A DNA stretch of 64,000 nucleotides from Escherichia coli. Lineage in GTDB: Bacteria > Pseudomonadota > Gammaproteobacteria > Enterobacterales > Enterobacteriaceae. The position numbers were made by a program, and so were the translations under genes. The notes under the pieces are model-generated. The model made no database searches, was not told the origin of the DNA, and saw nothing but the letters and a program-made list of their open reading frames with translations. Location: assembly GCF_013315695.1 (NCBI RefSeq), contig NZ_CP054354.1, one strand, 5' to 3'. Below, piece after piece: positions 13,929 to 64,000 of the stretch (positions within the stretch are counted from its first letter, which is position 1; every line of letters begins with the position of its first letter).

Positions 13929-15033
13929 TGTGATACTCCTCGCTATCTGTTGCTTTCAGGAAGAGGCGAACGGAAGTGGCGTCTTTCAGGATGCCGGACG
14001 GCAGGTGCCAGCCGGTATCTGATAACACCCAGGGGGTTCCGCCAAAACCGAACTGGCGGAAAGCCTGGTTATTGACATCGATGGCAGCACGTGCGGCGGT
14101 CAGACACTGTCCATCCTGTGCGGCCGGTGCATCGCCGGTGGGGGCCATACCACTGTCAGCGGAATACAGCTGATGCCATCCGGTCGCCCGTTTTTGTGAG
14201 TCCGGTTCACACAGCAGCGGAGCAGTCCGCTTTGTACTGGACTCCCCGCCAATCACGGAGACCGGATAAATCACCACGCTGAATTCCCGGGCCAGTTGCT
14301 TAAGCGCGGGTTCCAGCAGACGGCAGTTGATGCATGCGGGGTCAAGGAAGGCGTACAGCGTGCGTTCATGACCAGTGGACAGGTTAATGGTGAACATCCC
14401 CCGGTCTGCGTTGCGTTTAAGTACTGTGGCCAGATTACGGCGGGCCTCAGCGGCCTGAACGTGTTGTTCTTCCGTCACTGCCGTCGGGGCGGGGGCAGAA
14501 GAAGGTTCCTGCTGTGTGGGAGCCGGGCGGACCGGGATGCTGTTAACATGATGTTCCGTATGTGGGCGTGGTGTCTCTGTGTCGGTTACTGGTTCAGCTC
14601 TCCATTCCTGAGATGTAGGGTAAGCCAGCGTGGAAGGGGACTCTGCCTTCATCCAGTGGTAACCTGCAACTGTCGCCGGCAGAGCAATTCCGGCGATAAA
14701 GCCACACATCAGTGTCCGCCAGAAGCCATTTTTCCGGGAGGGATGTTTTCCTTTTCCGGCATATTCGGCATCCAGGCAGGCATCAATCGCTGAGAGCATT
14801 CTGCCGATGTGATGTCCGGGACGTTCTGCATCAACGGTATCAACAAGCACCGTTTCGGTTATTTCGCGAAAAGGGGAACTGAAGGACAGGTGCATCAGCC
14901 TGTTATTACGGTTAATCAGTGCGCCCAGTTCTGTGACTGGCAGGATGGCAATCACCTCCCGATTACCGTCAGGGTACAGGGCGGTCAGGGACAGGTGTTT
15001 ATTATTCAGTGTTGCAGTGTAGTGGATGGTCAT
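13909..15033 (-). CDS. trbB: TrbB-like thioredoxin-fold (DsbC-like) protein
   Basis: 374 aa; CxxC motif in FLDPACINC; start overlaps trbA stop (ATGA). Confidence 0.6.
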   Translation of the reverse strand: MTIHYTATLNNKHLSLTALYPDGNREVIAILPVTELGALINRNNRLMHLSFSSPFREITETVLVDTVDAERPGHHIGRMLSAIDACLDAEYAGKGKHPSRKNGFWRTLMCGFIAGIALPATVAGYHWMKAESPSTLAYPTSQEWRAEPVTDTETPRPHTEHHVNSIPVRPAPTQQEPSSAPAPTAVTEEQHVQAAEARRNLATVLKRNADRGMFTINLSTGHERTLYAFLDPACINCRLLEPALKQLAREFSVVIYPVSVIGGESSTKRTAPLLCEPDSQKRATGWHQLYSADSGMAPTGDAPAAQDGQCLTAARAAIDVNNQAFRQFGFGGTPWVLSDTGWHLPSGILKDATSVRLFLKATDSEEYHNEPAPR

Positions 15034-16373
15034 TGTTCTTTTTCCTTGTCGGCGGGATGCTGTTTTTCGGTGGTTTCGGTGGTTTCGGTGGTTTCGGTGG
15101 TTTCGGTGGTTTCGGTGGTTTCGGTGGTTTCGGTGGTTTCGGTGGTTTCGGTGGTTTCACCAGTGTCAGTGTCTTCGTCGTTATCATGGCGGCGGGGTAT
15201 CACGTCATCCGTGAGTGACCAGCGGGTTCTGATCTGACGTTTACGATCGCGATCTGGCTGAGGTTCGTCCCATATCAGGCCCAGCCCCAGCATGTCCCGT
15301 CGAAGCCCTTCAATGGCCTCTTCCACACAGGGTTCCGGGCAGGGGAGGCCGAGACGGCTGGCTTCATTTTCTGCCCGGGCAACGGCCACCACGCCGGCCC
15401 CTTCGATGAAGCCTTTTGTGGTGTTTGCCCGGTGAAGGGCATAGAAGAGCGTCCGGTCAACGCCCTTGAGCCACAGCCAGTTGGGGGGCGTCAGGCGCAA
15501 ATCATGTGCGTAAAGCCAGACCAGACCGCTGCGAACGTAACGGTGCTGCCTGAGCCACTGTTGTGCACCTTCTGTTTTTATGACCCGGATAAAGGCGTTT
15601 CTGGCCAGTGAATACACTGGCGTGCTGAAACGCCCCTGGTCCCGCTTGCTTTTGAGTCTGCAGGAGAGGTTGAGGTTATTCATCAGGGAAACAGCCGCTT
15701 TCCGGTCCCCGAGGAAGAACTGCAGGCCAAAGACGGCAAAGAGCGCTTTTTCATGTGGAGCCATGTCTTTCCAGGTGGTCAGAGGCTGGCCCAGCTGCGC
15801 CATAAAGCGCTGGCGCGTGGCCGCAACATCGAGCTGCATGTTGCGGATAAGGTTGTTCTGCGCCACAAAGACTTCCGGGGTTAGAGCGACACGGCGCTCG
15901 GGACGTTTTTGTCCGTGGAAGAGTCTGTTGCTGTCTCCGTCAGCCAGAACGGGGGCGATCGCCGGTGACAGTGATGAAAACAGATGTGGCAGCGTGTGGA
16001 TATTCAGTGGTCTGCGGGTGAAGCGGGGCTGGGCCGGATGCTGAAACCACATCCACAGAAAGCCGATCGTCATGGGAAGCAGAATCAGCCAGAGGATCCC
16101 CACGGTCTGTGACATGACATCCAGCCACTGGCTGAAAGTGATCGTTGCAGCGTTGTTGGCGGTGTTGGCCAGCAGGTTATAACGGGGGGCGGCAAAATGG
16201 TGAAAAGGCCCCCAGTCAGTCATCCCCCACATTGTGTGCAGGATCAGGCAGGTGGCAAAGACGATGTCGGGTAAAAAGAGCCAGATGAGAAGCGCAAAGA
16301 GCAGACATATGGTGCCAACGATATACCATATGTTCATCGGGTCTTCTGTTGTGGGGGAGTGTTGGTAAGACAC
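15030..16373 (-). CDS. trbA: TrbA-like protein (DotM/IcmP-like) with C-terminal (TTE)n repeat
   Basis: 447 aa; N-terminal TM segments; gene order trbA-trbB-trbC as in R64. Confidence 0.55.
   Translation of the reverse strand: MSYQHSPTTEDPMNIWYIVGTICLLFALLIWLFLPDIVFATCLILHTMWGMTDWGPFHHFAAPRYNLLANTANNAATITFSQWLDVMSQTVGILWLILLPMTIGFLWMWFQHPAQPRFTRRPLNIHTLPHLFSSLSPAIAPVLADGDSNRLFHGQKRPERRVALTPEVFVAQNNLIRNMQLDVAATRQRFMAQLGQPLTTWKDMAPHEKALFAVFGLQFFLGDRKAAVSLMNNLNLSCRLKSKRDQGRFSTPVYSLARNAFIRVIKTEGAQQWLRQHRYVRSGLVWLYAHDLRLTPPNWLWLKGVDRTLFYALHRANTTKGFIEGAGVVAVARAENEASRLGLPCPEPCVEEAIEGLRRDMLGLGLIWDEPQPDRDRKRQIRTRWSLTDDVIPRRHDNDEDTDTGETTETTETTETTETTETTETTETTETTETTEKQHPADKEKEQ
15063..15160. repeat. 9-bp tandem repeat (GGTTTCGGT unit, about 10 copies) inside the trbA 3' end
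   Basis: Direct tandem array in sequence; in-frame, encodes TETTETTE... on the minus strand. Confidence 0.9.
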
Positions 16374-16515
16374 GAGGATTCCTCCATCGATAAATAGATA
16401 AATTTCGGGATGAGGCTGAGTGGAATTAATGCGAACAATCGCCGGTAATGACCGGGCAGGGCTGAATTCAGCAGGGCATTTTCACAGGAACAACAGAAGG
16501 TGGTGAGAGACAGGC

Positions 16516-16547
16516 ACAAAAAAGCCGACTGGTGAGGCCGGCTTTTT
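16516..16547. terminator. bidirectional terminator-like hairpin flanked by A- and T-runs
   Basis: aaaaaagccgactggtgaggccggctttttt; near-identical copy at 17246..17277. Confidence 0.5.
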
Positions 16548-16909
16548 TGCGATCCCAGGGAGAGTGGGTGGCTCTGGCCCGGAGGAAGTCTCTTTTCAAC
16601 TAACGTTACCAGAATATCGTTATATTCACCTGATCGCAATCTGTTCGTTACAGTCTATTGTTCCGGGAGTAGCGATATCGCCTGAAACAAGTATAATCAG
16701 CAAGTTAGCCTTGTCTGGAGACTTACCTTCGCATCAATCCATCGGGACTATGGATCTGTGCTATTCAAAGACCTGGGCGGACAAACAGGTGGTGCTGCGT
16801 CTGGTGCTCTGGCCGGAGGAAGTCTCTTTTCAGCTAACAATGAAAGAGCTGTTGTGACAGGCAATGTAAGAGTAAACAACAGTGATTTCCTCCATTGATG
16901 GAGAAACGG

Positions 16910-17005
16910 ATGATTAACCTGTTAATCATCGTTCTCAGGGCGGTTGTTGCTGTGGCTAACGCAGTGATAGCTCTCCTGGAACTGATCCGGGAACTGGTTG
17001 ACTGA
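16910..17005 (+). CDS. small hydrophobic peptide, 31 aa; candidate type I toxin (DinQ/TisB-like)
   Basis: MINLLIIVLRAVVAVANAVIALLELIRELVD; GGAG RBS lies inside the palindrome CTCCAT-TG-ATGGAG; strong terminator follows; tandem duplicate at 17594..17689. Confidence 0.4.
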   Translation: MINLLIIVLRAVVAVANAVIALLELIRELVD

Positions 17006-17026
17006 TAATCCCGGAAACGTACTTAA

Positions 17027-17056
17027 GGGCAGAGGGTCACCGCCCTCTGCCCTTTA
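17027..17056 (+). terminator. rho-independent terminator
   Basis: Perfect 10-bp stem GGGCAGAGGG / CCCTCTGCCC, loop TCACCG, then TTT. Confidence 0.65.
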
Positions 17057-17245
17057 ATAATCTACGGACAGATTACTTTCTGTACTTCCAGAGCCTGTTT
17101 CTGTGAGTCAAACATGAGCTGGTTTTTACCGACTACACCCAAGTAAATATATTCGATATCTCCCATTTGCCGTATTTTCGTAAAATTCAACAGGAAATAT
17201 TCAACGGGAGTGAGAGAACTGCTGTCCGGGGAGGAGGTACAGACG

Positions 17246-17277
17246 CAAAAAAACCGACTGGTGAGGCCGGTTTTTTT
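17246..17277. terminator. bidirectional terminator-like hairpin (copy 2)
   Basis: aaaaaaaccgactggtgaggccggttttttt. Confidence 0.5.
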
Positions 17278-17593
17278 GCGATTCCGGATCGAAGTTGGTA
17301 GCCCTGACCGGAAGATAACTGCCTATAACTGACTATGAAATAATACGGCTGAAATAATATTTCTGCAAGCACAGTATAAGTATATACTCGGTGTGTCAGC
17401 TTTGAGGCACGTTCTTTCCGGCATATCGTTCACCGGGATGAACAGGTTGCAAGTCCTGGCCAAAACATCAGGTGGTGCTGGTTTTGGTGCTCTGGCCGGA
17501 GAAGAACTGTCTATAACTGACACTATAGAAAACGTGGCGACAGGCAATGTAAGGGCAAACCACGGTGTTCTTTCTCCATTGATGGAGAAGCGG

Positions 17594-17689
17594 ATGATTA
17601 ACCTGTTAATCATCGTTCTCAGGGCGGTTGTTGCTGTGGCTAACGCAGTGATAGCAATCCTGGAACTGATCCGGGAACTGGTTGACTGA
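17594..17689 (+). CDS. small hydrophobic peptide, 31 aa; candidate type I toxin (copy 2)
   Basis: MINLLIIVLRAVVAVANAVIAILELIRELVD; same RBS palindrome and terminator; the track ORF 17393..17689 is an in-frame upstream extension. Confidence 0.4.
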   Translation: MINLLIIVLRAVVAVANAVIAILELIRELVD

Positions 17690-17710
17690 TAATCCCGGAA
17701 ACGTACTTAA

Positions 17711-17740
17711 GGGCAGAGGGTCACCGCCTTCTGCCCTTTA
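17711..17740 (+). terminator. rho-independent terminator (copy 2)
   Basis: GGGCAGAGGG-TCACCG-CCTTCTGCCC then TTT. Confidence 0.6.
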
Positions 17741-18078
17741 ACAAAATATGCTCAGGTTAAAAATCGAAAACCTTCCTGCACTTCCTGTGCCTGTTCCCGT
17801 GAGTCAAACATGAGCCGGCTTTTACCCGGAACTCCCCAGGAAATATATTCTACATCCACCCACCATTTTCCGTATTCTTCATACGGTCCGGATATCACTT
17901 TAGTGACAAATGCATCAACCAGGTTCATTTTTACACCTTTCTGTTATTCTGCTTATTACGACCAGCAGACAGCAAATATTAAAAATAACGCGGCGGTAAA
18001 AATGGCAATTTTTTTCCATGCTGTATTTTTGCCATTTATTTTCTTTGAAATGGTTTTTTTCTTCATATCAGCAAATAA

Positions 18079-18546
18079 TTATTTCTTATTCTGTTTTCTC
18101 CAGGTCCATGGTGGTACCGGATTTTTATCTGCCCATAATCCCCGCTTCAGGGCGCGGGCATCACGCTGGAGCGGCGGGAGAGTATAGTCATTATTGTAGT
18201 CCGGGTACACCCAGGCAGCGCCGTTACGGACCTGCCAGCGATTTGCTTCTGTGCCGTCAGCGGTATAGACCCGGCCGAGAATACGGCCATACCTGTCTGT
18301 CTGCGCGTATTGCACGGTTACGGGCTTTCCGGCCACCAGGTCCTTCAGCTGAGTGGCTGACCAGCGTCCAAAGGGCTGTTTCTTTTCCGGTGCATCAATA
18401 TTAGCCAGACGGACCCTGACAGGCTTTTTGTCCTGTAATATTTCCAGCGTATCACCATCAAGAACGCGGATGACGTGCCCCTGAATCTGTGCAGCACAGA
18501 GAGAAGCGGAAAAAATAATGGTGAGTGAAAAGATATATTTTATCAT
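18079..18546 (-). CDS. nuc: secreted thermonuclease (staphylococcal nuclease-like)
   Basis: 155 aa; signal peptide MIKYIFSLTIIFSASLCAA; VIRVLDGDTLEI and RLANIDAPE motifs typical of SNase-fold nucleases. Confidence 0.7.
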   Translation of the reverse strand: MIKYIFSLTIIFSASLCAAQIQGHVIRVLDGDTLEILQDKKPVRVRLANIDAPEKKQPFGRWSATQLKDLVAGKPVTVQYAQTDRYGRILGRVYTADGTEANRWQVRNGAAWVYPDYNNDYTLPPLQRDARALKRGLWADKNPVPPWTWRKQNKK

Positions 18547-18648
18547 TTCATCGTCTCCTTTTTATTTATGAAAACAGGTGCAATTAATATTGCGAAATAA
18601 TAACGTTCAGGTGTGTTTTTTTTGGCAGTGTGATACTTCACGCAGGGC

Positions 18649-19329
18649 ATGAATTCCAGTACGCTGATATCCGTGATGATACGGCAACAGATATCCGGTG
18701 ACGGTATGCAGGAACATATTGATTATCAGATTGAGAAATATCAGTTCAGGGCCAGGAATGAGTCACCGCGACTGATGCGCCAGTGGGAAGATGTCATGCG
18801 TGAATGCCGTGATACCGGAGCAGGAGCCAGGGAGCGGCTGCGGATTGCCTTACTTAATGTTGATTATGTGACCAGTTTTGAACTGCCGTTTCGTCTGCTG
18901 TTAACCCGGACACCGCAGATGATTGACAGCGTGCGGCGGGAATGGCAGCTCAGCCAGAAAAAAGTTGTATTCAATGAGCGGCAGCGGGGATGTGTATACA
19001 GTCTGCAGAATGACTTATCCGGCGTGCCGGATAGCTTCAGTTACAGTCTTGCGACGCGAATACGGCGGGCGGACAGCTATGGCATGACGACGCGTTGTTT
19101 CACTGATATAGCCGGGCAGGTTAAAGCCCCGACAGCACGGCTGAAACTGGCGCTGGAAAGCGGGTTAATTGTCACCGCGCTGGATGGTCTGTTCTGGCTT
19201 GGTATTCAACGTATTGCCGCAGATGTGCAGCGGCTGCGTCAGTCCGGAATGACAATCATCACCCGGGATGTTGAGGTCTCAGACTCGCTGACCGGAACCA
19301 CACGGGTTGTTTCCGGGTACAGCCTTTGA
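18649..19329 (+). CDS. hypothetical protein, up to 226 aa
   Basis: ORF only; true start may be internal; no confident motif. Confidence 0.35.
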   Translation: MNSSTLISVMIRQQISGDGMQEHIDYQIEKYQFRARNESPRLMRQWEDVMRECRDTGAGARERLRIALLNVDYVTSFELPFRLLLTRTPQMIDSVRREWQLSQKKVVFNERQRGCVYSLQNDLSGVPDSFSYSLATRIRRADSYGMTTRCFTDIAGQVKAPTARLKLALESGLIVTALDGLFWLGIQRIAADVQRLRQSGMTIITRDVEVSDSLTGTTRVVSGYSL

Positions 19330-19530
19330 TTTATGCAACAAAGTATCGCAGCGTCGAATATGAGCTATGGCCAGATTTTTGTTAATCGTGGTTGTTGCAA
19401 CATGTAAGGCGAATGACCACACTATTCTGGCACGCTCGTAATCATGCTGAAATTCTGCTTCCTGTCCTGCCGTGATGAGTTCCGACCAGGACATACGGCG
19501 AAGTGTATGTCTGTCAGTAATATCCGTCAT
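19279..19530 (-). CDS. hypothetical small protein, 83 aa
   Basis: Last gene of four overlapping minus-strand ORFs (ATGA-type junctions). Confidence 0.35.
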   Translation of the reverse strand: MTDITDRHTLRRMSWSELITAGQEAEFQHDYERARIVWSFALHVATTTINKNLAIAHIRRCDTLLHKSKAVPGNNPCGSGQRV

Positions 19531-19742
19531 GAGCTCTCAGCCTCCTCCTTCGTATTTCCGTCAGAAACACAAACGCCCCGCAGAGAAAATTCGCCAACAT
19601 TCTCCTTTTTAATGGCGCGCAATGCATCGCGGCAGGCCCGTTCGGTATGAAAGGCCTGGCTGTGCACCGCCAGTGTGGGCTGACGGGCATCACCGGAAGA
19701 GACATTAAAGGGCGATGAAAGCCAGAAAATCAGTAGCCACAT
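19527..19742 (-). CDS. hypothetical small protein with hydrophobic N-terminus, 71 aa
   Basis: Overlapping-ORF operon member; MWLLIFWLSSPF... looks like a signal or TM segment. Confidence 0.35.
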   Translation of the reverse strand: MWLLIFWLSSPFNVSSGDARQPTLAVHSQAFHTERACRDALRAIKKENVGEFSLRGVCVSDGNTKEEAESS

Positions 19743-19745
19743 GCG

Positions 19746-20129
19746 TCACACCTCGTCCTTTTTATGCGGGTATCTGGACAGAATATTGAGCGCCTGTAAT
19801 GGCGCTTCATGCATTTCACGGATACAACGGGCATCGGTGATATTTTCCCGGTAATGTGTGGTTTCCAGCATCATATGATGCATATGGAGCATCCGGGCCA
19901 GGGCTGCGCGGAGTTCTTCAATATGTTGTTCATGGGAATGCTGGCGGGGCTGTATCCGGCAGAGAGGGATAACCTCCACATCATCCGGGTGCGCGCGAAG
20001 CCACGCGTCAGTGACTGCAATGTCGTCAGTGTAAAACCATGTGCCGGATGTCCCGTTGGCCAGAAAACGCATTTTCCAGGCTTCTGGGGTGGCGGTTGTG
20101 TTGTTATCTTTCATGGTGCCACCACTCAT
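19746..20129 (-). CDS. hypothetical protein, ~127 aa
   Basis: Overlapping-ORF operon member. Confidence 0.35.
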   Translation of the reverse strand: MSGGTMKDNNTTATPEAWKMRFLANGTSGTWFYTDDIAVTDAWLRAHPDDVEVIPLCRIQPRQHSHEQHIEELRAALARMLHMHHMMLETTHYRENITDARCIREMHEAPLQALNILSRYPHKKDEV

Positions 20130-20317
20130 TCAACAGGCTTAATGCTGTCCAGGCGCAGTCTGCTCAGACTGTCGTGGCTGCCACAGCGGCGTCCAGTGCT
20201 TTTGCTGTAGCACTCCTGCCCCCTGATACACCATGCCGTTGGCGTTTCGTAGAGGCTGACACGTCGGGTTTTATCTTTAATGATGAGAAGCCCGGTGTGA
20301 GTTTTTGTCTTTTTCAT
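20126..20317 (-). CDS. hypothetical small basic protein, 63 aa
   Basis: First gene of the overlapping-ORF operon. Confidence 0.3.
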   Translation of the reverse strand: MKKTKTHTGLLIIKDKTRRVSLYETPTAWCIRGQECYSKSTGRRCGSHDSLSRLRLDSIKPVE

Positions 20318-20413
20318 CGGTGGGGTACAAACGCAGAAATTTTGTTGTCATTACATCATCAGTTTTAGCCTGCAGAGACGCTGAAAAATCAGCGTTTTCA
20401 GACCCTGTTCAGG

Positions 20414-20734
20414 TTAGTGAATATTCTTGCCTGGCCTTTCGGCAATATCAATCCCCTGAAGTTGCATGGATATCCCATGCCCATTGAGCATCTGGCTGTC
20501 CATGGAATGGATACCGCATGTCATCATCAGGTTGTAACAAAGCGTACTCAGCATGGCGAGTGCCTCTTCTGAGGATTTACAATGTGTGTTCATAAGGGCC
20601 AGAAACTGCTCAACAACATCCGGGTTAATGCTGGTACTGTGTATTTCATCCTTCATGATGTGTCCTTGTTTTTTATTATTTTGCATTTCAGAAAATAACA
20701 CGATGCCTGCAGCCCGGAAAACAGATGTGTGCAC
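20414..20734 (-). CDS. hypothetical small protein
   Basis: ORF only; likely start at the internal MKDEIHS. Confidence 0.3.
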   Translation of the reverse strand: MHTSVFRAAGIVLFSEMQNNKKQGHIMKDEIHSTSINPDVVEQFLALMNTHCKSSEEALAMLSTLCYNLMMTCGIHSMDSQMLNGHGISMQLQGIDIAERPGKNIH

Positions 20735-20985
20735 ACGTAGTCACTTTCCGGCTTTATTTCTGTCCCTGACACAAAATACGTGGTGGCATGAAAAGGATTG
20801 TGGCGGACTGGAAAACGATTAGAATAGCGGCGGGCGCTTGAGGCTGTATGCCGAAAGCGTTTTGTGGACGGCATGTAGCAGAAAGCCCCAGGCGATTTTT
20901 TTATCAATCAACCCAGGGCCCACTGTAATGCCTCAACAACATTATAGTAGCCCGATGACGGCCGAAAGGCAATGGAGGGGCTGCG

Positions 20986-21138
20986 ATGCCACAACGAACG
21001 TTTTTAATGATGTTAATCGTCGTCTGTGTGACGATACTGTGTTTTGTCTGGATGGTGAGGGATTCGCTTTGCGGATTTCGTATCGAGCAGGGAAATACGG
21101 TGCTTGTGGCAACGTTAGCCTACGAAGTTAAACGTTAA
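20986..21138 (+). CDS. hok: Hok/Gef-family type I toxin (PndA/Hok-like), 50 aa
   Basis: Not in ORF track (<60 aa). MPQRTFLMMLIVVCVTILCFVWMVRDSLCGFRIEQGNTVLVATLAYEVKR matches the Hok/PndA pattern; overlapped in another frame by ORF 20838..21131 (mok-like). Confidence 0.7.
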   Translation: MPQRTFLMMLIVVCVTILCFVWMVRDSLCGFRIEQGNTVLVATLAYEVKR

Positions 21139-21275
21139 CGGGCAACACGGCGGTAGAGAATCTGCCGCCGGATTGTTGCGAAGGCTGACCTCAATGCGCC
21201 TTGTTTGTCTTTTTTACCGGACGACTGCTGGTTGCTGCTGTCCGGCAGCTATTATTTTTTCCGTCCTGTGCGTCA

Positions 21276-22862
21276 TCAATTATGACAGTCGCTCTCATTT
21301 AGTTGTCTCTGGTTAGATGTATTATTAGATATTTTCGGGGTAATTCGATAAAAGTTATCCACTTCAGCACCAGACTGAATGATATATGCAATAAGATCTA
21401 AACGATGAATCTCGTATCGTGTACGTAACTCCATCATTTCACGCCATGCTAAAATCCTTGATGTTTTCAGTTCAGCCTCTATAAGTTTCCATGTGTTTGT
21501 TGAGATGGCATGTTCTTCCAGCTGACGTAACGAGAACCTATCACTAATGACCAACCATCCCCATCCTCGAGTATGTGCCCATTTGCGACCTGCATTACTT
21601 TTTATTCTCGTGAGACTCAAGGTCATTCGGTCTGTTGGCTTCACTTCCATAAGTAGGCACCGACCATCAACTGTCGCAATGAGTAAATCTGGATAGTATT
21701 TTTTTGATTTGTTTTTAAAACAATATGGAATAGAAAATGGTTGTTCTTGATAGAAAAGAACCTGATCGCAACATTCTAATAGATTCATTATTTTAAACTC
21801 AAGCCCTGATTCGTACTGGACTGTACGACCTAATTTTTGAGAGTAAAAGAATCCAGATATGTCAGTATCATTAACCGCTCTCTGTGAACATAGCTGTTCT
21901 ACGGGGGGAGGAGGTGCGATATATTTTGGCCAATGTGTATTGTCTAGCCATTTACTGAATATGAACTCAACTCTTTCTTTCTTGATTCGGGCTCTTTCCT
22001 GAGCGCGAGCGTGTGCTAATTCTGCTCTTCGTTCACGTAACCTCTGCTTTTGTAATTGTGATATTAATGAGAGCGAACTTTTTATTTCATCTCGTCTTGC
22101 TTTAGGAATGCCTGCGGTAAAAATAATGAATTTGGCGGCTAAGTCAGAGGATGTAACGAAATCCCGATGAACAATACGATAAATCCATACTGCTATATCA
22201 TATGGTGAATTACCTATTGAGTTAATAAGGGCTTTAAGGCAAGCTCCAGGTGTCCCTTCATAGCGAGATTTAGCAGCTAGTAAGCCAAGGGCTCGTTCCT
22301 GAAGTTGTCTTACCCTTTCACGGGAAATTCCTAATTTGACGGCAATATCTGCCAGAGAATGAGGTGAATCATCTGTGCCGAGTCGCATTAGAAGAATATA
22401 TTGATGTCGTTTATTAGATAAACTTTCGATAGCAGAATGAATTAGCATAATGACATCATGTTCATCGGCTATATAATCTTTAAAATCTGTATTGGGTTGG
22501 CAGAGGGGGAGTGGGGTATTTTGTTTAAAACTATTCTTTTGTATTTCAACTTTATCATGAGCAATTGTTTTTGCAGTGCTCAATGATATTAAATTATTGA
22601 TGATACTATTGTGTTCTTGGCGAGGAATCTTGTTGAAGTAATTGCTGAGATCATTCACCGTGTTTATATCGTTGAACTCAAGAAACTCAGAAGGAAGCAG
22701 GCGTTTGATTGCTCCACGTATTCCCCCGGACGATCGTTGATGTGTTTGAGTAAGTTTTTTTAGCGAGACGCCCTCCGCTATGGATACGAGAAGACGCTGT
22801 AACTCTTCAGTATTCCATGGAGTACCATGTCGTGCTGGAAAATTGCTGCGGGATTCAGACAT
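21276..22862 (-). CDS. sigma-70 region-4-like HTH fused to PD-(D/E)xK (TnsA-like) nuclease motif; unknown function
   Basis: 528 aa; HQYILLMRLGTDDSPHSLADIAVKLGISRERVRQLQERALGLL fits sigma-70 region 4.2; C-terminal YYPDLLIATVDGRCLLMEVKP fits PD...EVK; lies in a visibly AT-rich segment. Confidence 0.55.
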   Translation of the reverse strand: MSESRSNFPARHGTPWNTEELQRLLVSIAEGVSLKKLTQTHQRSSGGIRGAIKRLLPSEFLEFNDINTVNDLSNYFNKIPRQEHNSIINNLISLSTAKTIAHDKVEIQKNSFKQNTPLPLCQPNTDFKDYIADEHDVIMLIHSAIESLSNKRHQYILLMRLGTDDSPHSLADIAVKLGISRERVRQLQERALGLLAAKSRYEGTPGACLKALINSIGNSPYDIAVWIYRIVHRDFVTSSDLAAKFIIFTAGIPKARRDEIKSSLSLISQLQKQRLRERRAELAHARAQERARIKKERVEFIFSKWLDNTHWPKYIAPPPPVEQLCSQRAVNDTDISGFFYSQKLGRTVQYESGLEFKIMNLLECCDQVLFYQEQPFSIPYCFKNKSKKYYPDLLIATVDGRCLLMEVKPTDRMTLSLTRIKSNAGRKWAHTRGWGWLVISDRFSLRQLEEHAISTNTWKLIEAELKTSRILAWREMMELRTRYEIHRLDLIAYIIQSGAEVDNFYRITPKISNNTSNQRQLNESDCHN

Positions 22863-23135
22863 GATTTTATCTTTATGTTTTCTAGGTACTGCCTTGAGTG
22901 TGTGGATATGATAATTATTTGTAATGATATTGTTATCTTTTATAGATAACTGATATGCAGAATTGTATTGATTTTGTCTACAGTGGGCAAGACAGTGCTA
23001 AGAATTTGTGGGGAAAACATAGAGACTCCATGCGGCGTCCTGAGATAGACGGCAGACAGGCATTCTGCCTGAAAAGAAAAAGCCGGTTCAGAGAAAACCG
23101 GCTGACGGATTATCGTCTAACAGTTGATAGCTACC

Positions 23136-23789
23136 TCAAAATACTTCTGCAACAGGAACACCGGCAACTTTTTCCCACTCTTTAACCCGATACCGGATCA
23201 TCTGTGGGAAACGTTCCTTGTACTCATATCCACGTGCAGCCATGGTGTGCATGGTGTTGGCCAGCGTCCTTGCTGAGATGCCGGAGATCTCAAGAGGAAT
23301 CATCGGCAGACTCACATAGGTGGTGTGGATTTCCAGCTTGCCGTCTTCAGCAACCGTGCGGGTAAAGTTGTGAATATCCAGACCAATCACATCCATCACA
23401 TTGTTTGGATAAATACGCACATACAGCATGGTGCCGTTTTTAATGTCGATCCCGAAATAACAACTCTTCGAGAATGACAGTTGCTCATAATCGCTGGTCG
23501 GCGCAAAGGGACTGCTTTCTTTTATCTGCTGAACAACCTGCTGGACTTTCTTTTTCTTCGCTCTGGTTTTCATATATAGCCAGAGTGATGGGAGTATTAA
23601 TAGGAGCCAACTGCCATAAGTATATAGATATGCTTGAATATCTGTTTCTATATATGGTTCTGTAAGCATCATACCGGTAAATCCTAGAGAACATAGTAAT
23701 AAAAAAGGAACACCAAATATAAAATAAGCAGTGCGGATAAGGTAATAATATGCCCACCAGGAAGGATATCTGCTTTTTGTTGTGTTCAT
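23136..23789 (-). CDS. excA: ExcA-like entry-exclusion inner-membrane protein
   Basis: 217 aa; N-terminal TM segments; immediately downstream of traY as in R64; AT-rich. Confidence 0.45.
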   Translation of the reverse strand: MNTTKSRYPSWWAYYYLIRTAYFIFGVPFLLLCSLGFTGMMLTEPYIETDIQAYLYTYGSWLLLILPSLWLYMKTRAKKKKVQQVVQQIKESSPFAPTSDYEQLSFSKSCYFGIDIKNGTMLYVRIYPNNVMDVIGLDIHNFTRTVAEDGKLEIHTTYVSLPMIPLEISGISARTLANTMHTMAARGYEYKERFPQMIRYRVKEWEKVAGVPVAEVF

Positions 23790-23800
23790 AATAAACCTCC

Positions 23801-23841
23801 ATATTCACCTGAATGTATTTTAATCTCTTCAGGTGAATATG
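23801..23841 (-). promoter_or_regulatory. perfect 13-bp inverted repeat between traY and excA
   Basis: ATATTCACCTGAA ... TTCAGGTGAATAT with 15-nt loop, just upstream of the excA RBS. Confidence 0.4.
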
Positions 23842-23876
23842 GCAATGGTGTTTTAGTGGTTTTTCGATATTTTCAT

Positions 23877-26042
23877 TTATTGTTTTATTCCGTCTTTATC
23901 ATCTCTATTAATATTTTTCAGTTTTTCTTCACGAACGCCAGGTGTTCTGCGCATATTGGTATTACCTCCGGCAATAATATCTTTGACTGAAGAAACCATA
24001 TTCCCCAGCATATTAACACCGTCACGTCCGCCCAGAAAATTAATTACATGGTCAGGCAGATAAGCCTGAAGCGCAAAAACGGCTGCAACCAGTGTGGTAC
24101 AGGCGCGGGCATAAATCATCAAAAATCCCGCCATGCTGAACACACCCGTCACAGAGTTTATCTGGACATTCATCAGTGCAGCAGCATACAGCGCATTCAG
24201 GATTGTGCCGCCGGCCACGATGGCGACTGATGCAAAAAAGAACCCGAACACCATCAGCAGCGGTCTGATCATGCTGTCTATCAGGTAGATGTAACCGTAA
24301 GCGGCTCGGCTTCCCCGGTCCTGACTTGTTCCCAGATGGGTGGCGGCCCACAGGGGGCCAGCAGCACATCCAATCAGTACGCTGACTATCCAGTTGCCGA
24401 TGCCGGTCATCCAGAAGATAAACGGGATAAACGGCAGGTAAATGGATAACGAAAAACCGGCACAAAACAGCAAAAACAGCAGGAAGTAGAGTGGTGGTGC
24501 GGATGCTTCCAGAAAAGCCTTTGCGGCGTCAGATAATCCGCTGACGGCATTGACCAGTCGACCAAAAACGGAGTTGCTGCCGGCCGTGGAAAGTACCCTG
24601 ACGGTGGTATAACCCGCCCAGATGGTTTCGGTCGTAACCATGGTGTAATCGCCAATGTTTTTCATTTTTATCAACGGATTTAGTTGATTAGTTGTGGTAC
24701 CTGTACCGCTCAGATAAGTGGCTGTCCAGTTAGTCATTCTTGTTAGGTTAAACCCAATCAATTTTAAGATTGCTGATTGAGGGTCTTGAGTTTTAGATGC
24801 GTGGTATTCACTGGCAGAGGTGGCGGTTCCCAGTGCAGGAGTATACGCTGAGTTCTGCAGCTGTGCCTGGTAAGCCCCCTTGACTTCCTTCAGGAATTCC
24901 GTATCCCCGGCTTCGCCCAGTGACGAGACGCCACTCACTGTAGGAGCACGGTCGGCCAGTTCAGCCAGTCGCTGGTTGGCGGTGGCAAAGGTCTGGTACC
25001 AGGCGCCCAGGGCAACCCAGCCGTAGGTGGTCAGGTAGGATTTCAGCTGCTCCCTGCGCTCAGTTTCTGCGTTATCTGCCGGCAACGCCTTCTGCACCGT
25101 TTCTTCATACCGGTTGGCTGCCTTCTGAATACGGCTTTCAATATCCGGCAGGTTGCCGTTACCCGTGTCGCGCCGGGTCCGGTATGCCGACACAAATTCC
25201 TGCGCCGCGCTGTCCAGGTCACGGAGCATGGTATCCATGGCGGAGCGCTGTGCCGTCAGAACCCCCTGATATTCCGTTTCAATGAAGGGATTGAAAAAAT
25301 GGGCCAGCGCGGACTGCTTGTTACTGCCGTTTCCTTTCACGGAGAGACTCACACTCCCGCAGGTGGCGCTGCCATTTGAGACGGTGACGGTATATCTGCC
25401 ATTCTCTGTCCGTGAGGATTCGCTCATGGGCGGCGTTGATGAACGTGCGGTACGGTTAAAGTCATCGAGGCCCGTATTCATGGCGTGTTTGCACAGTTCC
25501 ATCTCCAGAATTCCCCGTGCTGCCGTGCGGGTGGAGACATGTACTGGCTGTACGGTCATTGAATAGCCTTCAGCAATGTTTTCTGCCGCTGTCTGAACCA
25601 TGATATTGGCGGAACCGATGCCCATGATGGATGCGCCCCACAGCATGACCAGTTGCGCCAGACTCCAGCCGGAAGCGGTGGGCACAATCATCAAAAATCC
25701 ACTCACGACACTGAGTATGCCGACGACGTCCCGTCCGTTGTTAAAGACACTGCCCTGGTGTCCCGTGCGGACAGCATGACGGATACCAATAAACAGAAAC
25801 CAGACTATCCCCATCGTGGCGATAATTGCGTTAAACACCATGAACAGGTTGCCAATGATGGTGTTGCTGCTGGCTGTCAGGGGATTTGTGACCACATCAC
25901 CAAAAATGGTGACCAGTGCCTGGCGCGACAGGTCATCCGGATTGGTGGCGGCACTCACAATGTCCTGATAGGTGACGAAAGCCTGTGCAGGTACGGCAGC
26001 CAGCGCCAGACCTGCACTCAGTGCTCTGGGTATGATTTTCAC
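23877..26042 (-). CDS. traY: TraY-like integral membrane protein
   Basis: 721 aa; multiple TM segments; size and position as R64 TraY. Confidence 0.65.
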   Translation of the reverse strand: MKIIPRALSAGLALAAVPAQAFVTYQDIVSAATNPDDLSRQALVTIFGDVVTNPLTASSNTIIGNLFMVFNAIIATMGIVWFLFIGIRHAVRTGHQGSVFNNGRDVVGILSVVSGFLMIVPTASGWSLAQLVMLWGASIMGIGSANIMVQTAAENIAEGYSMTVQPVHVSTRTAARGILEMELCKHAMNTGLDDFNRTARSSTPPMSESSRTENGRYTVTVSNGSATCGSVSLSVKGNGSNKQSALAHFFNPFIETEYQGVLTAQRSAMDTMLRDLDSAAQEFVSAYRTRRDTGNGNLPDIESRIQKAANRYEETVQKALPADNAETERREQLKSYLTTYGWVALGAWYQTFATANQRLAELADRAPTVSGVSSLGEAGDTEFLKEVKGAYQAQLQNSAYTPALGTATSASEYHASKTQDPQSAILKLIGFNLTRMTNWTATYLSGTGTTTNQLNPLIKMKNIGDYTMVTTETIWAGYTTVRVLSTAGSNSVFGRLVNAVSGLSDAAKAFLEASAPPLYFLLFLLFCAGFSLSIYLPFIPFIFWMTGIGNWIVSVLIGCAAGPLWAATHLGTSQDRGSRAAYGYIYLIDSMIRPLLMVFGFFFASVAIVAGGTILNALYAAALMNVQINSVTGVFSMAGFLMIYARACTTLVAAVFALQAYLPDHVINFLGGRDGVNMLGNMVSSVKDIIAGGNTNMRRTPGVREEKLKNINRDDKDGIKQ

Positions 26043-63700: not shown

Positions 63701-64000
63701 TATTCAGTGGCTTTTGGGATCCTCGCGGTCCGGAAAGCCAGAAAACGGCAGAATGCGCCATAAGGCATTCAGGACGTATGGCAGAAACGACGGCAGTTTG
63801 CCGGTGCCGGAAGGCTGAAAAAAGTTTCAGAAGACCATAAAGGAAAACCCCCACTATTTTTCCTCGAACTTGGCGGAACGCAGAAAAATAATGGGGGCCT
63901 CACAGAATACGGGATAAGTATATATGAAACCGTACCAGAGATTCAACCCTGTGCAGTGTATAAATACACGGCACAATCGCTCCGCCATAAGCGACAGCTT

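Follow-up and report, generated by a model that had tools for sequence, protein, structure and literature searches.

We analysed positions 16374-23876 of a 64,000-nucleotide stretch of Escherichia coli plasmid DNA (contig NZ_CP054354.1, one strand; "the window" below denotes this whole stretch), a range that begins immediately beside trbA and ends at traY. A preliminary description made from the letters alone had presented the range as an accessory cargo stretch assembled by several independent acquisitions at a single insertion hotspot. Here, the range is compared with related plasmids, with attention to its toxin-antitoxin units, its block of small genes, its AT-rich module encoding a 528-aa nuclease-like protein, and the junctions that separate them. 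The features at the locus are as follows (ORF, open reading frame):

15030-16373, minus strand: trbA, first gene of the trbABC transfer operon and left backbone flank, annotated in plasmid pMB9108_2
16474-17183, plus strand: dqlB/agrB unit 1, a type I toxin-antitoxin unit (NCBIfam, Rfam and repeats)
17184-17935, plus strand: dqlB/agrB unit 2
18079-18546, minus strand: nuc, an SNase (thermonuclease)-type gene with a signal-like N-terminal leader (Pfam SNase, 78.5 bits)
18706-19329, plus strand: ECs1377-family winged-helix DNA-binding gene, ORF open from 18649 (NCBIfam NF052300, 299.6 bits, cutoff 190; Pfam HTH_39)
19279-20656, minus strand: block of five small ORFs of, in order, 80, 63, 122/127, 71 and 83 aa
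20832-21206, plus strand: pnd/hok-sok type I toxin-antitoxin locus, ending at its terminator
21207-23047, minus strand: AT-rich single-gene module of 1,841 bp, coding sequence 21276-22862 (528 aa)
23048-23789, minus strand: excA terminator hairpins (23048-23135) and the entry-exclusion gene excA (23136-23789, 217 aa), backbone, annotated in pMB9108_2
23877-26042, minus strand: traY (DotA/TraY family), right backbone flank, annotated in pMB9108_2

Every feature named in the preliminary description was recovered at its position within the range, in the ORF list or among Pfam, NCBIfam and Rfam matches. The "tandem small-peptide genes" are two dqlB copies in a tandem duplication, and the hok-like locus was matched by both Rfam and Pfam models (scores below). 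The "secreted thermonuclease" belongs to the SNase family, while its secretion is predicted from an N-terminal hydrophobic leader in the sequence only. The proposed four-gene overlapping operon running from 20317 down to 19279 exists as a run of genes, but the overlap is partial and five genes fit better, as the 80-aa gene travels with the others. The extent of the stretch also needed revision: although described as lying between trbA and excA, the range includes excA and ends at traY, such that the true trbA-excA interval is 16374-23135 (6.76 kb). Nor can the whole range be called cargo, for it holds added modules but also backbone excA and genes of pnd/hok, dqlB/agrB, 58-aa and 80-aa (hyp80) type that are found in the IncI1 plasmid R64. 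All genes of the stretch carry RefSeq annotation on hundreds of plasmids, the exception on this plasmid being the 83-aa ORF, which is uncalled.

Along its whole 7.5 kb, the range matches E. coli plasmid pMB9108_2 at 99.9% identity. That plasmid is typed as IncI1/B/O, MOBP and MPF_I, and the right end of the window holds a full-length match to the repZ regulatory pseudoknot, an I-complex replicon marker (Rfam PK-repZ, 63840-63988, plus strand, 188.9 bits). A megablast search with the range gave matches in 3,211 PLSDB records, 232 of which covered at least 80% of it. At the same stringency, IncI1 plasmids such as R64 matched over the pnd locus only, plus dqlB in some, and we therefore place this conjugative plasmid in the B/O/K/Z branch of the I-complex (IncB/O/K/Z-type). 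The arrangement as a whole is not specific to it, being common to the 232 records.

We confirmed that base composition is heterogeneous, with a mean guanine-plus-cytosine (GC) content of 500-bp windows of 0.460 within 16374-23876 versus 0.544 elsewhere in the window, and a more uneven profile inside the range. The lowest-GC 2-kb bin of the 64 kb is 22001-24000 (0.402), and GC reaches 0.57-0.60 in trbB/trbA and traX/traW. The compositional extreme is the AT-rich 528-aa gene, whose GC is 0.394 and whose GC at third codon positions (GC3) is 0.304, compared with 0.47-0.67 for all other window ORFs of at least 250 aa and 0.44-0.59 for the other genes of the interval. Part of the AT-rich zone is not cargo, because the backbone gene excA (GC 0.43, holding the lowest-GC 500-bp window) contributes to it; its low GC is therefore not evidence of acquisition. 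Together with the toxin-antitoxin units, which have a GC of 0.47, consist mostly of non-coding RNA and leader and are ancestral to the I-complex, excA lends some weight to the explanation that the heterogeneity arises from encoded content (small hydrophobic peptides, antisense RNAs and a fast-evolving exclusion protein of the membrane) and not from foreign origin. As this explanation accounts neither for a GC3 of 0.304 in a 1.6-kb gene for a soluble protein, nor for the presence or absence of that gene at fixed junctions, nor for the close match (93-95% identity) between the small-gene block and chromosomal islands, we regard it as very unlikely.

To place the interval in its family, we compared about 12 hand-picked relatives and added BLAST counts, a sample that is not phylogeny-aware. 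The trbA-excA distance ranged from 1.5 to 7.8 kb in the 7 relatives with both ends read, and the content of the interval differed among relatives:

R64, 2.3 kb: pnd, an 83-aa gene, dqlB, the 58-aa gene and a HEAT-repeat gene
pSA20075157.1, 1.5 kb: an mqsA-type pair, hok and HEAT
p172-CMY-104k, 7.8 kb: the R64-type set with finQ and ISEcp1-blaCMY-2-blc-sugE
p1095_scFOS, 3.3 kb: one dqlB, no small-gene block, and a GNAT/DUF1778 pair replacing the 528-aa gene
pAPEC-O2-MS1266-2, 4.7 kb: one dqlB, nuc, the helix-turn-helix (HTH) gene, the small-gene block, hok, a HEAT-repeat gene and a duplicated excA 3' remnant
pEC013, 5.3 kb: nuc, the HTH gene, the small-gene block, two hok copies, a HEAT-repeat gene and the same excA 3' remnant
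pSTEC405_1 and the 00-3076 plasmid, left end outside the locus: DUF2569 and phosphoethanolamine (PEtN)-transferase genes in place of four small genes

The preliminary description would have been refuted had the whole family kept one gene set in one order; this was not so, and relatives hold other genes in the same slots, in keeping with that description. Common to R64 and this plasmid are hok (90% identical as DNA), dqlB and the 58-aa gene (83% identical as protein), and the R64 83-aa gene is distantly homologous to the 80-aa gene (33% identity, E=1e-8). We also considered the R64 83-aa gene as a homologue of the 83-aa ORF in the window and rejected this pairing (27% identity, poor alignment). 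As they also occur in R64, the pnd/hok, dqlB/agrB, 58-aa and 80-aa-type genes are an ancestral core of the interval rather than cargo, although the order of pnd and dqlB here is the reverse of that in R64. In IncI1 plasmids the trbA-to-traY segment has been called "a very variable region", with FinQ (RD1) and IS609 (RD2) inserts, FinQ lying between trbA and pndA, where its insertion came with a duplication of 173 bp, and IS609 nearby, and with six excA and nine traY variants (PMC8004404). The stretch analysed here resembles that region in its position, its core (pndCA and small ORFs), its inserts between trbA and pnd, its excA and traY variants and its inter-lineage recombination; it differs in carrying a second dqlB unit, the SNase gene, the ECs1377-family gene with the small-gene block, and the 528-aa nuclease, which combines a sigma region-4 module with a TnsA-like domain.

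The DUF2569 and 511-aa PEtN-transferase genes occupy the small-gene slot of pSTEC405_1 (L005 2999-5189) and the 00-3076 plasmid (L023 1866-4057), and the transferase is only distantly related to CptA/EptA. An mcr-1/MCR identity of the pSTEC405_1 transferase was rejected: its best NCBIfam match was CptA, at 107.6 bits far under the cutoff, and no MCR model was among the matches. The copy in the 00-3076 plasmid carries no resistance-gene flag in PLSDB.

Alignment of the junctions delimited the exchanged segments precisely. Every variant is alike as far as the hok terminator T-run (21206). The variants diverge directly after it and reconverge at the excA terminator hairpins, from 23048; the sequence from this point onward is common to all B/O/K/Z variants compared. 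The slot between 21206 and 23048 is filled by the 1,841-bp nuclease module, an 861-bp GNAT/DUF1778 module or a 157-bp filler. The small-gene block, bounded at approximately 19295/19296 and 20864/20865, is missing in p1095_scFOS. A terminator-like hairpin past excA (23103-23081, minus strand) is the only element used from the promoter/terminator scan, and the junction alignment supports it independently. The recombination scars that the preliminary description suggested looking for at 16.4 and 23.8 kb were not found; instead, the junctions are internal (~19295/20865 and 21206/23048), falling where transcription units end, and the 87-bp spacer between excA and traY is conserved. At the junctions we found no inverted or direct repeats, insertion sequence (IS) ends, or integrase or recombinase genes, the only repeats being the dqlB duplication and short pairs at chance level. 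Likewise, no transposase or integrase ORF, terminal repeats or border target duplication was found that would identify a transposon or integrative island as the vehicle of 16374-23876.

Sliding identity against colinear relatives revealed a second kind of variation. Identity falls to 73-92% over nuc (18030-18650) between flanks of ~100%, to 63-83% over the 80-aa gene region (20430-20830), to 65-70% in excA (23554-23753) and to 60-64% in traY (24654-24853). The changes of allele are abrupt and fall at gene borders. For nuc, at least three allele classes (99%, 87% and 74% identity) occur in otherwise near-identical contexts. Conversely, the four downstream small genes are 99-100% identical among plasmids whose trbA and traY differ by 4-10%, and identity of the 528-aa gene is 99% or higher in 302 out of 314 records, though the backbones differ by up to 10%. 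As read from these alignments, abrupt allele blocks set against modules conserved at 99-100% are a signature of recombinational mosaicism. In some relatives hok is duplicated and flanks other cassettes, as in pSTEC405_1, where hok-vapBC-hok stands ahead of the 528-aa gene, and in pEC013, which has two copies; these duplications suggest that hok is a recombination anchor.

The module in the 21206/23048 slot encodes a 528-aa protein composed of an N-terminal helical domain, a sigma-70 region-4 HTH (residues ~134-198), a long helix, a TnsA-like PD-(D/E)xK nuclease domain (~337-440) and a C-terminal helical domain, with Pfam matches to Sigma70_r4 (residues 150-193) and Tn7_TnsA-like_N (residues 366-440). 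Across 25 aligned homologues, the most distant at 23% identity, no substitution occurs at E351, D392 or E406-x-K408, nor at R183, R185 and Q186 of the HTH, and the protein thus has a Tn7 TnsA-type endonuclease domain with its catalytic residues. Like Tn7 TnsA (PDB 1t0f), it has a restriction-enzyme-like fold with the E...D...ExK arrangement followed by a C-terminal helical domain of DNA-binding type; unlike Tn7 TnsA, it has ~330 extra N-terminal residues that include the sigma region-4 HTH, and it is encoded alone in variable islands. A sigma-factor reading of the protein was rejected: region 4 is present, there is no Sigma70_r2 match, and NCBIfam sigma models align only to residues ~130-200, far under their cutoffs.

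The endonuclease domain raises the question of whether the AT-rich module descends from a Tn7-like transposon of which only TnsA is left, the hotspot being a product of site-specific transposition beside excA. This origin is extremely unlikely, given that genes for TnsB, TnsC or targeting are lacking in the interval and beside all six homologues examined, that no terminal repeats or target duplication surround 21207-23047, and that the protein scores 46.8 bits with the NCBIfam TnsA_like model, versus a cutoff of 110. Moreover, the fusion to sigma region 4, in a 520-650-aa architecture, is kept as a stand-alone gene from Enterobacterales to Streptomyces, with homologues in Pectobacterium, Dickeya, Salmonella, Providencia, Xanthomonas, Stenotrophomonas, Streptomyces and a Mycobacterium prophage.

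Three of the six homologue contexts directly adjoin a defence system, namely Gabija (GajA 892 bits, GajB 765 bits with PADLOC models), BREX (Brx Pfam families) or a Lamassu-like system (LmuB plus a SIR2 gene), and one further homologue lies in an integrase-bounded island at ssrA. The 528-aa protein had no significant match in PADLOC-DB 2.0, the only hit being a 17.4-bit partial match to SspB, and a literature search by accession and for TnsA-like defence proteins returned nothing relevant in the library searched. By association, a role in defence or plasmid competition is a reasonable inference. A more ambitious and rather doubtful proposal is that the gene founds a family, so far uncharacterised, of stand-alone nucleases for defence or against mobile elements, in which the sigma region-4 module would direct the TnsA-like nuclease, placed in a swappable slot beside excA where relatives hold toxin-antitoxin pairs. 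In p69-3818, a 1969 Shigella dysenteriae 1 plasmid, the nuclease gene has an in-frame deletion of 1,365 bp (window 21449-22813) with a junction overlap of ~6 nt (L024 4183-4188); the module therefore predates 1969 and can be lost.

The block of small genes has a different history. Its members, all on the minus strand, are as follows:

20414-20656: 80-aa gene (hyp80), which travels with the small-ORF run
20126-20317: 63-aa gene
19746-20114 or 20129: 122/127-aa gene, with the start at 20114 in RefSeq and in the island copies
19527-19742: 71-aa gene
19279-19530: 83-aa gene

The 71-aa/83-aa junction is a 4-nt ATGA overlap, while the 63-aa/127-aa junction is such an overlap only with the ATG at 20129, the start at 20114 giving an 11-nt gap, and one other junction in the run is a 3-nt gap. 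From 19069/19204 to 20815, the sequence is 93-95% identical to a block adjoining iha and sat in chromosomal islands of uropathogenic E. coli (UPEC; sequence type ST131 and others). The islands have the same five small genes and the 3' end of the ECs1377-family gene in the same order; unlike on the plasmid, IS fragments border their block and only the 3' end of the DNA-binding gene remains. On the plasmid this gene is intact, and the last small ORF differs at its C-terminus (83 aa versus 90 aa in UPEC). Homologues of the ECs1377-family gene are found in chromosomal integrative islands, with YagK/YfjJ genes as neighbours. Among the five small proteins, none had a Pfam match even at E=5 or any match in PADLOC, and in PHROG they matched only families of unknown function; a weak ANR match of the 83-aa protein (20.6 bits, cutoff 32) is a lead only. 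We rejected the idea that nuc, the HTH gene and the small genes came from phages, with no DNA match in the phage collection and only PHROG families of unknown function. The 83-aa ORF and the ECs1377-family gene are convergent, and their 3' ends overlap by 51 nt (19279-19329). RefSeq leaves this ORF uncalled on the plasmid and calls the 90-aa homologue in the UPEC islands.

Taken together, the composition, module limits, family-wide mosaicism and domain content observed here suggest, with a probability of roughly 85%, that the stretch is a permissive mosaic interval between two transfer units, in which an old core and lineage additions are reshaped by module exchange and allele swapping. The left unit starts at trbABC (16373), and the right unit, ...traW-traX-traY-excA on the minus strand, ends at the excA terminator near 23.05-23.1 kb. 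The core, shared with IncI1 R64, comprises pnd/hok-sok, dqlB/agrB with its 58-aa neighbour and the 80-aa gene, to which the second dqlB/agrB unit, the SNase nuclease, the ECs1377-family gene with the UPEC-shared small block and the AT-rich nuclease module would have been added in this lineage. Whole modules enter, leave or give way to others where transcription units end, at the hok terminator (21206) and the excA terminator (23048), and divergent alleles would be swapped by homologous recombination between the anchors hok, excA, trbA and HTH. The interval holds self-contained transcription units, and insertions may persist here because they break no operon. Addiction modules (two type I families here; vapBC, GNAT/DUF1778 and mqsA-type pairs in relatives) may favour their own retention and that of their neighbours, the conserved anchors could provide homology for exchange between co-resident I-complex plasmids, and the nuclease module may serve defence or competition. 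The earlier proposal of several acquisitions at one hotspot is thus upheld as regards the mosaic across relatives and the differing histories of the modules, while much of the heterogeneity is better described as allele swapping by homologous recombination.

Several observations weigh against a mosaic interval. The junctions are marked by no recombinase, repeats or target duplications, and the mechanism of module entry is inferred; the promoter/terminator scan performed at chance, with 15 sites versus 13.7 expected and 9 versus 6.9 in shuffled sequence; and GC differences are modest outside the 528-aa nuclease gene. With some 232 plasmids carrying the full arrangement, the region behaves as stable and vertically inherited in this sublineage. 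As the comparison consists of the hand-picked relatives and BLAST counts, the number of independent events is not established.

The 232 records, which keep 80% or more of the stretch with its order unchanged, are also what would be expected if a single composite 7.5-kb island had been acquired once and relatives varied by later deletion only, and deletion derivatives do exist, p69-3818 in the nuclease gene and p1095_scFOS without the small block. However, deletion does not put different genes at the same junctions, as relatives have with GNAT/DUF1778, vapBC, HEAT-repeat, PEtN-transferase, finQ and blaCMY-2 genes, and one entry fits poorly with modules that differ in GC3 (0.30 versus ~0.55) and in divergence (the nuclease at least 99% everywhere, nuc and hyp80 alleles 74-87%). 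The UPEC islands match the small-gene block only, and pnd, dqlB and the 58-aa gene are already in R64. A single island is therefore unlikely, and a mosaic interval remains our preferred explanation.

Among the addiction modules, the complete dqlB/agrB locus is tandemly duplicated with a spacing of 684-729 bp (repeat pairs D1-D6). The elements of the two units and of the pnd/hok locus are:

16516-16603, minus strand: unit 1 agrB-like antisense RNA (Rfam AgrB, 37.4 bits, just under the gathering score of 40)
16813-16838: unit 1 agrB target repeat in the dqlB leader
16910-17005, plus strand: dqlB copy 1 ORF (NCBIfam NF041473, DinQ_rel/DqlB, 63 bits, cutoff 35)
17062-17190, minus strand: truncated 42-aa copy of the 58-aa ORF at the end of unit 1
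17245-17332, minus strand: unit 2 agrB (Rfam AgrB, 47.7 bits, gathering score 40)
17489-17521: unit 2 agrB target
17594-17689, plus strand: dqlB copy 2 ORF (31-aa family peptide), one residue different from copy 1
17752-17928, minus strand: conserved 58-aa ORF after unit 2, 83% identical to the R64 protein and matching phrog_8110
20832-20988, plus strand: sok/hok leader (Rfam RF01794, full-length, 124.7 bits, gathering score 59)
20986-21138, plus strand: hok ORF, a 50-aa Hok-family toxin (Pfam PF01848 HOK_GEF, 47.5 bits, cutoff 22)

Each toxin leader contains a direct repeat of part of the antisense RNA gene, giving cognate complementarity of ~36 nt in unit 1 and of ~45 nt with mismatches in unit 2. 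Cognate pairs of agrB and leader score 57 and 43 in alignment, compared with 24 and 18 across units, where pairing is weak; the antisense recognition segments have diverged and the toxins are nearly identical. The junction of the two units is at least 80% covered in 253 PLSDB records. DqlB/agrB is a validated addiction module on pOXA-48, and is present in 83.2% of IncB/O/K/Z and 67.4% of IncI1 plasmids (PMC12365149). The units resemble pOXA-48 DqlB/agrB and chromosomal dinQ-agrAB in their 31-aa DqlB, divergent AgrB RNA and leader complementarity of ~35 nt; unlike the pOXA-48 system, there are two tandem units with diverged recognition. The two units may act as addiction modules that do not protect against each other. 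A 48-aa hypothetical protein annotated by RefSeq at 16711-16857 (plus strand) lies within the unit 1 dqlB leader, where it overlaps the target repeat of agrB; it is unlikely to be a genuine gene. The pnd/hok locus shows 90% DNA identity to the R64 pnd locus, with nothing notable to distinguish it from this or from the R483 and R1 systems; its hok ORF scores 66.7 bits with the NCBIfam HokA equivalog, under the cutoff of 89.

The nuc gene is missing from the trbA-excA interval of R64, which has a phospholipase D (PLD)-type nuclease elsewhere. That PLD-family gene (L018 13431-13982) lies between sogL-like and traK-type genes, and no gene is present at the pMB9108_2 counterpart (L017 44918-44982). 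The SNase gene and the R64 PLD gene may represent non-orthologous replacement of a plasmid nuclease.

In the backbone flanks, DNA identity of trbA to its counterparts in relatives is 72-94%, and traY is 90-100% identical among B/O/K/Z plasmids and 67-69% identical to R64. Within trbA, Tandem Repeats Finder (TRF) identified a perfect tandem repeat at 15065-15158, a 9-bp unit in 10.4 copies (TTTCGGTGG on the plus strand), that codes for a (TET)n run near the TrbA C-terminus. The gene is 1344 nt long here. Its length is 1317 nt in pMB9108_2, which is nearly identical elsewhere, and 1263-1371 nt in further relatives, so that the repeat appears to vary in copy number among plasmids. Hypervariable blocks at 23554-23753, in the N-terminal third of excA, and at 24654-24853 in traY are 60-70% identical to pSTEC405_1, the remainder of both genes being 90-98% identical; this pairing is the pattern that would be expected of ExcA/TraY entry-exclusion specificity determinants. 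A duplicated remnant of the excA 3' end and terminator, homologous to 23048-23250, was found at two loci (L004 5876-6078 and L007 11905-12107), upstream of the HEAT-repeat gene and the functional excA, and looks like a scar from excA allele replacement.

The stretch is thus real but ordinary and largely known, its variability having been published for IncI1 and pnd and dqlB having been characterised, and the solo sigma region-4 TnsA-like nuclease is the sole element with real potential for novelty. For I-complex plasmids, the trbA-excA interval is a site at which cargo is picked up and exchanged, including blaCMY-2, finQ and several toxin-antitoxin pairs. Its fixed junctions (21206/23048 and ~19295/20865) are useful in typing and tracking these plasmids, though their practical value is modest. 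The small-gene block common to plasmids and UPEC virulence islands is a point for follow-up, and the solo TnsA-like nuclease is a reasonable candidate for a function in defence or plasmid competition.

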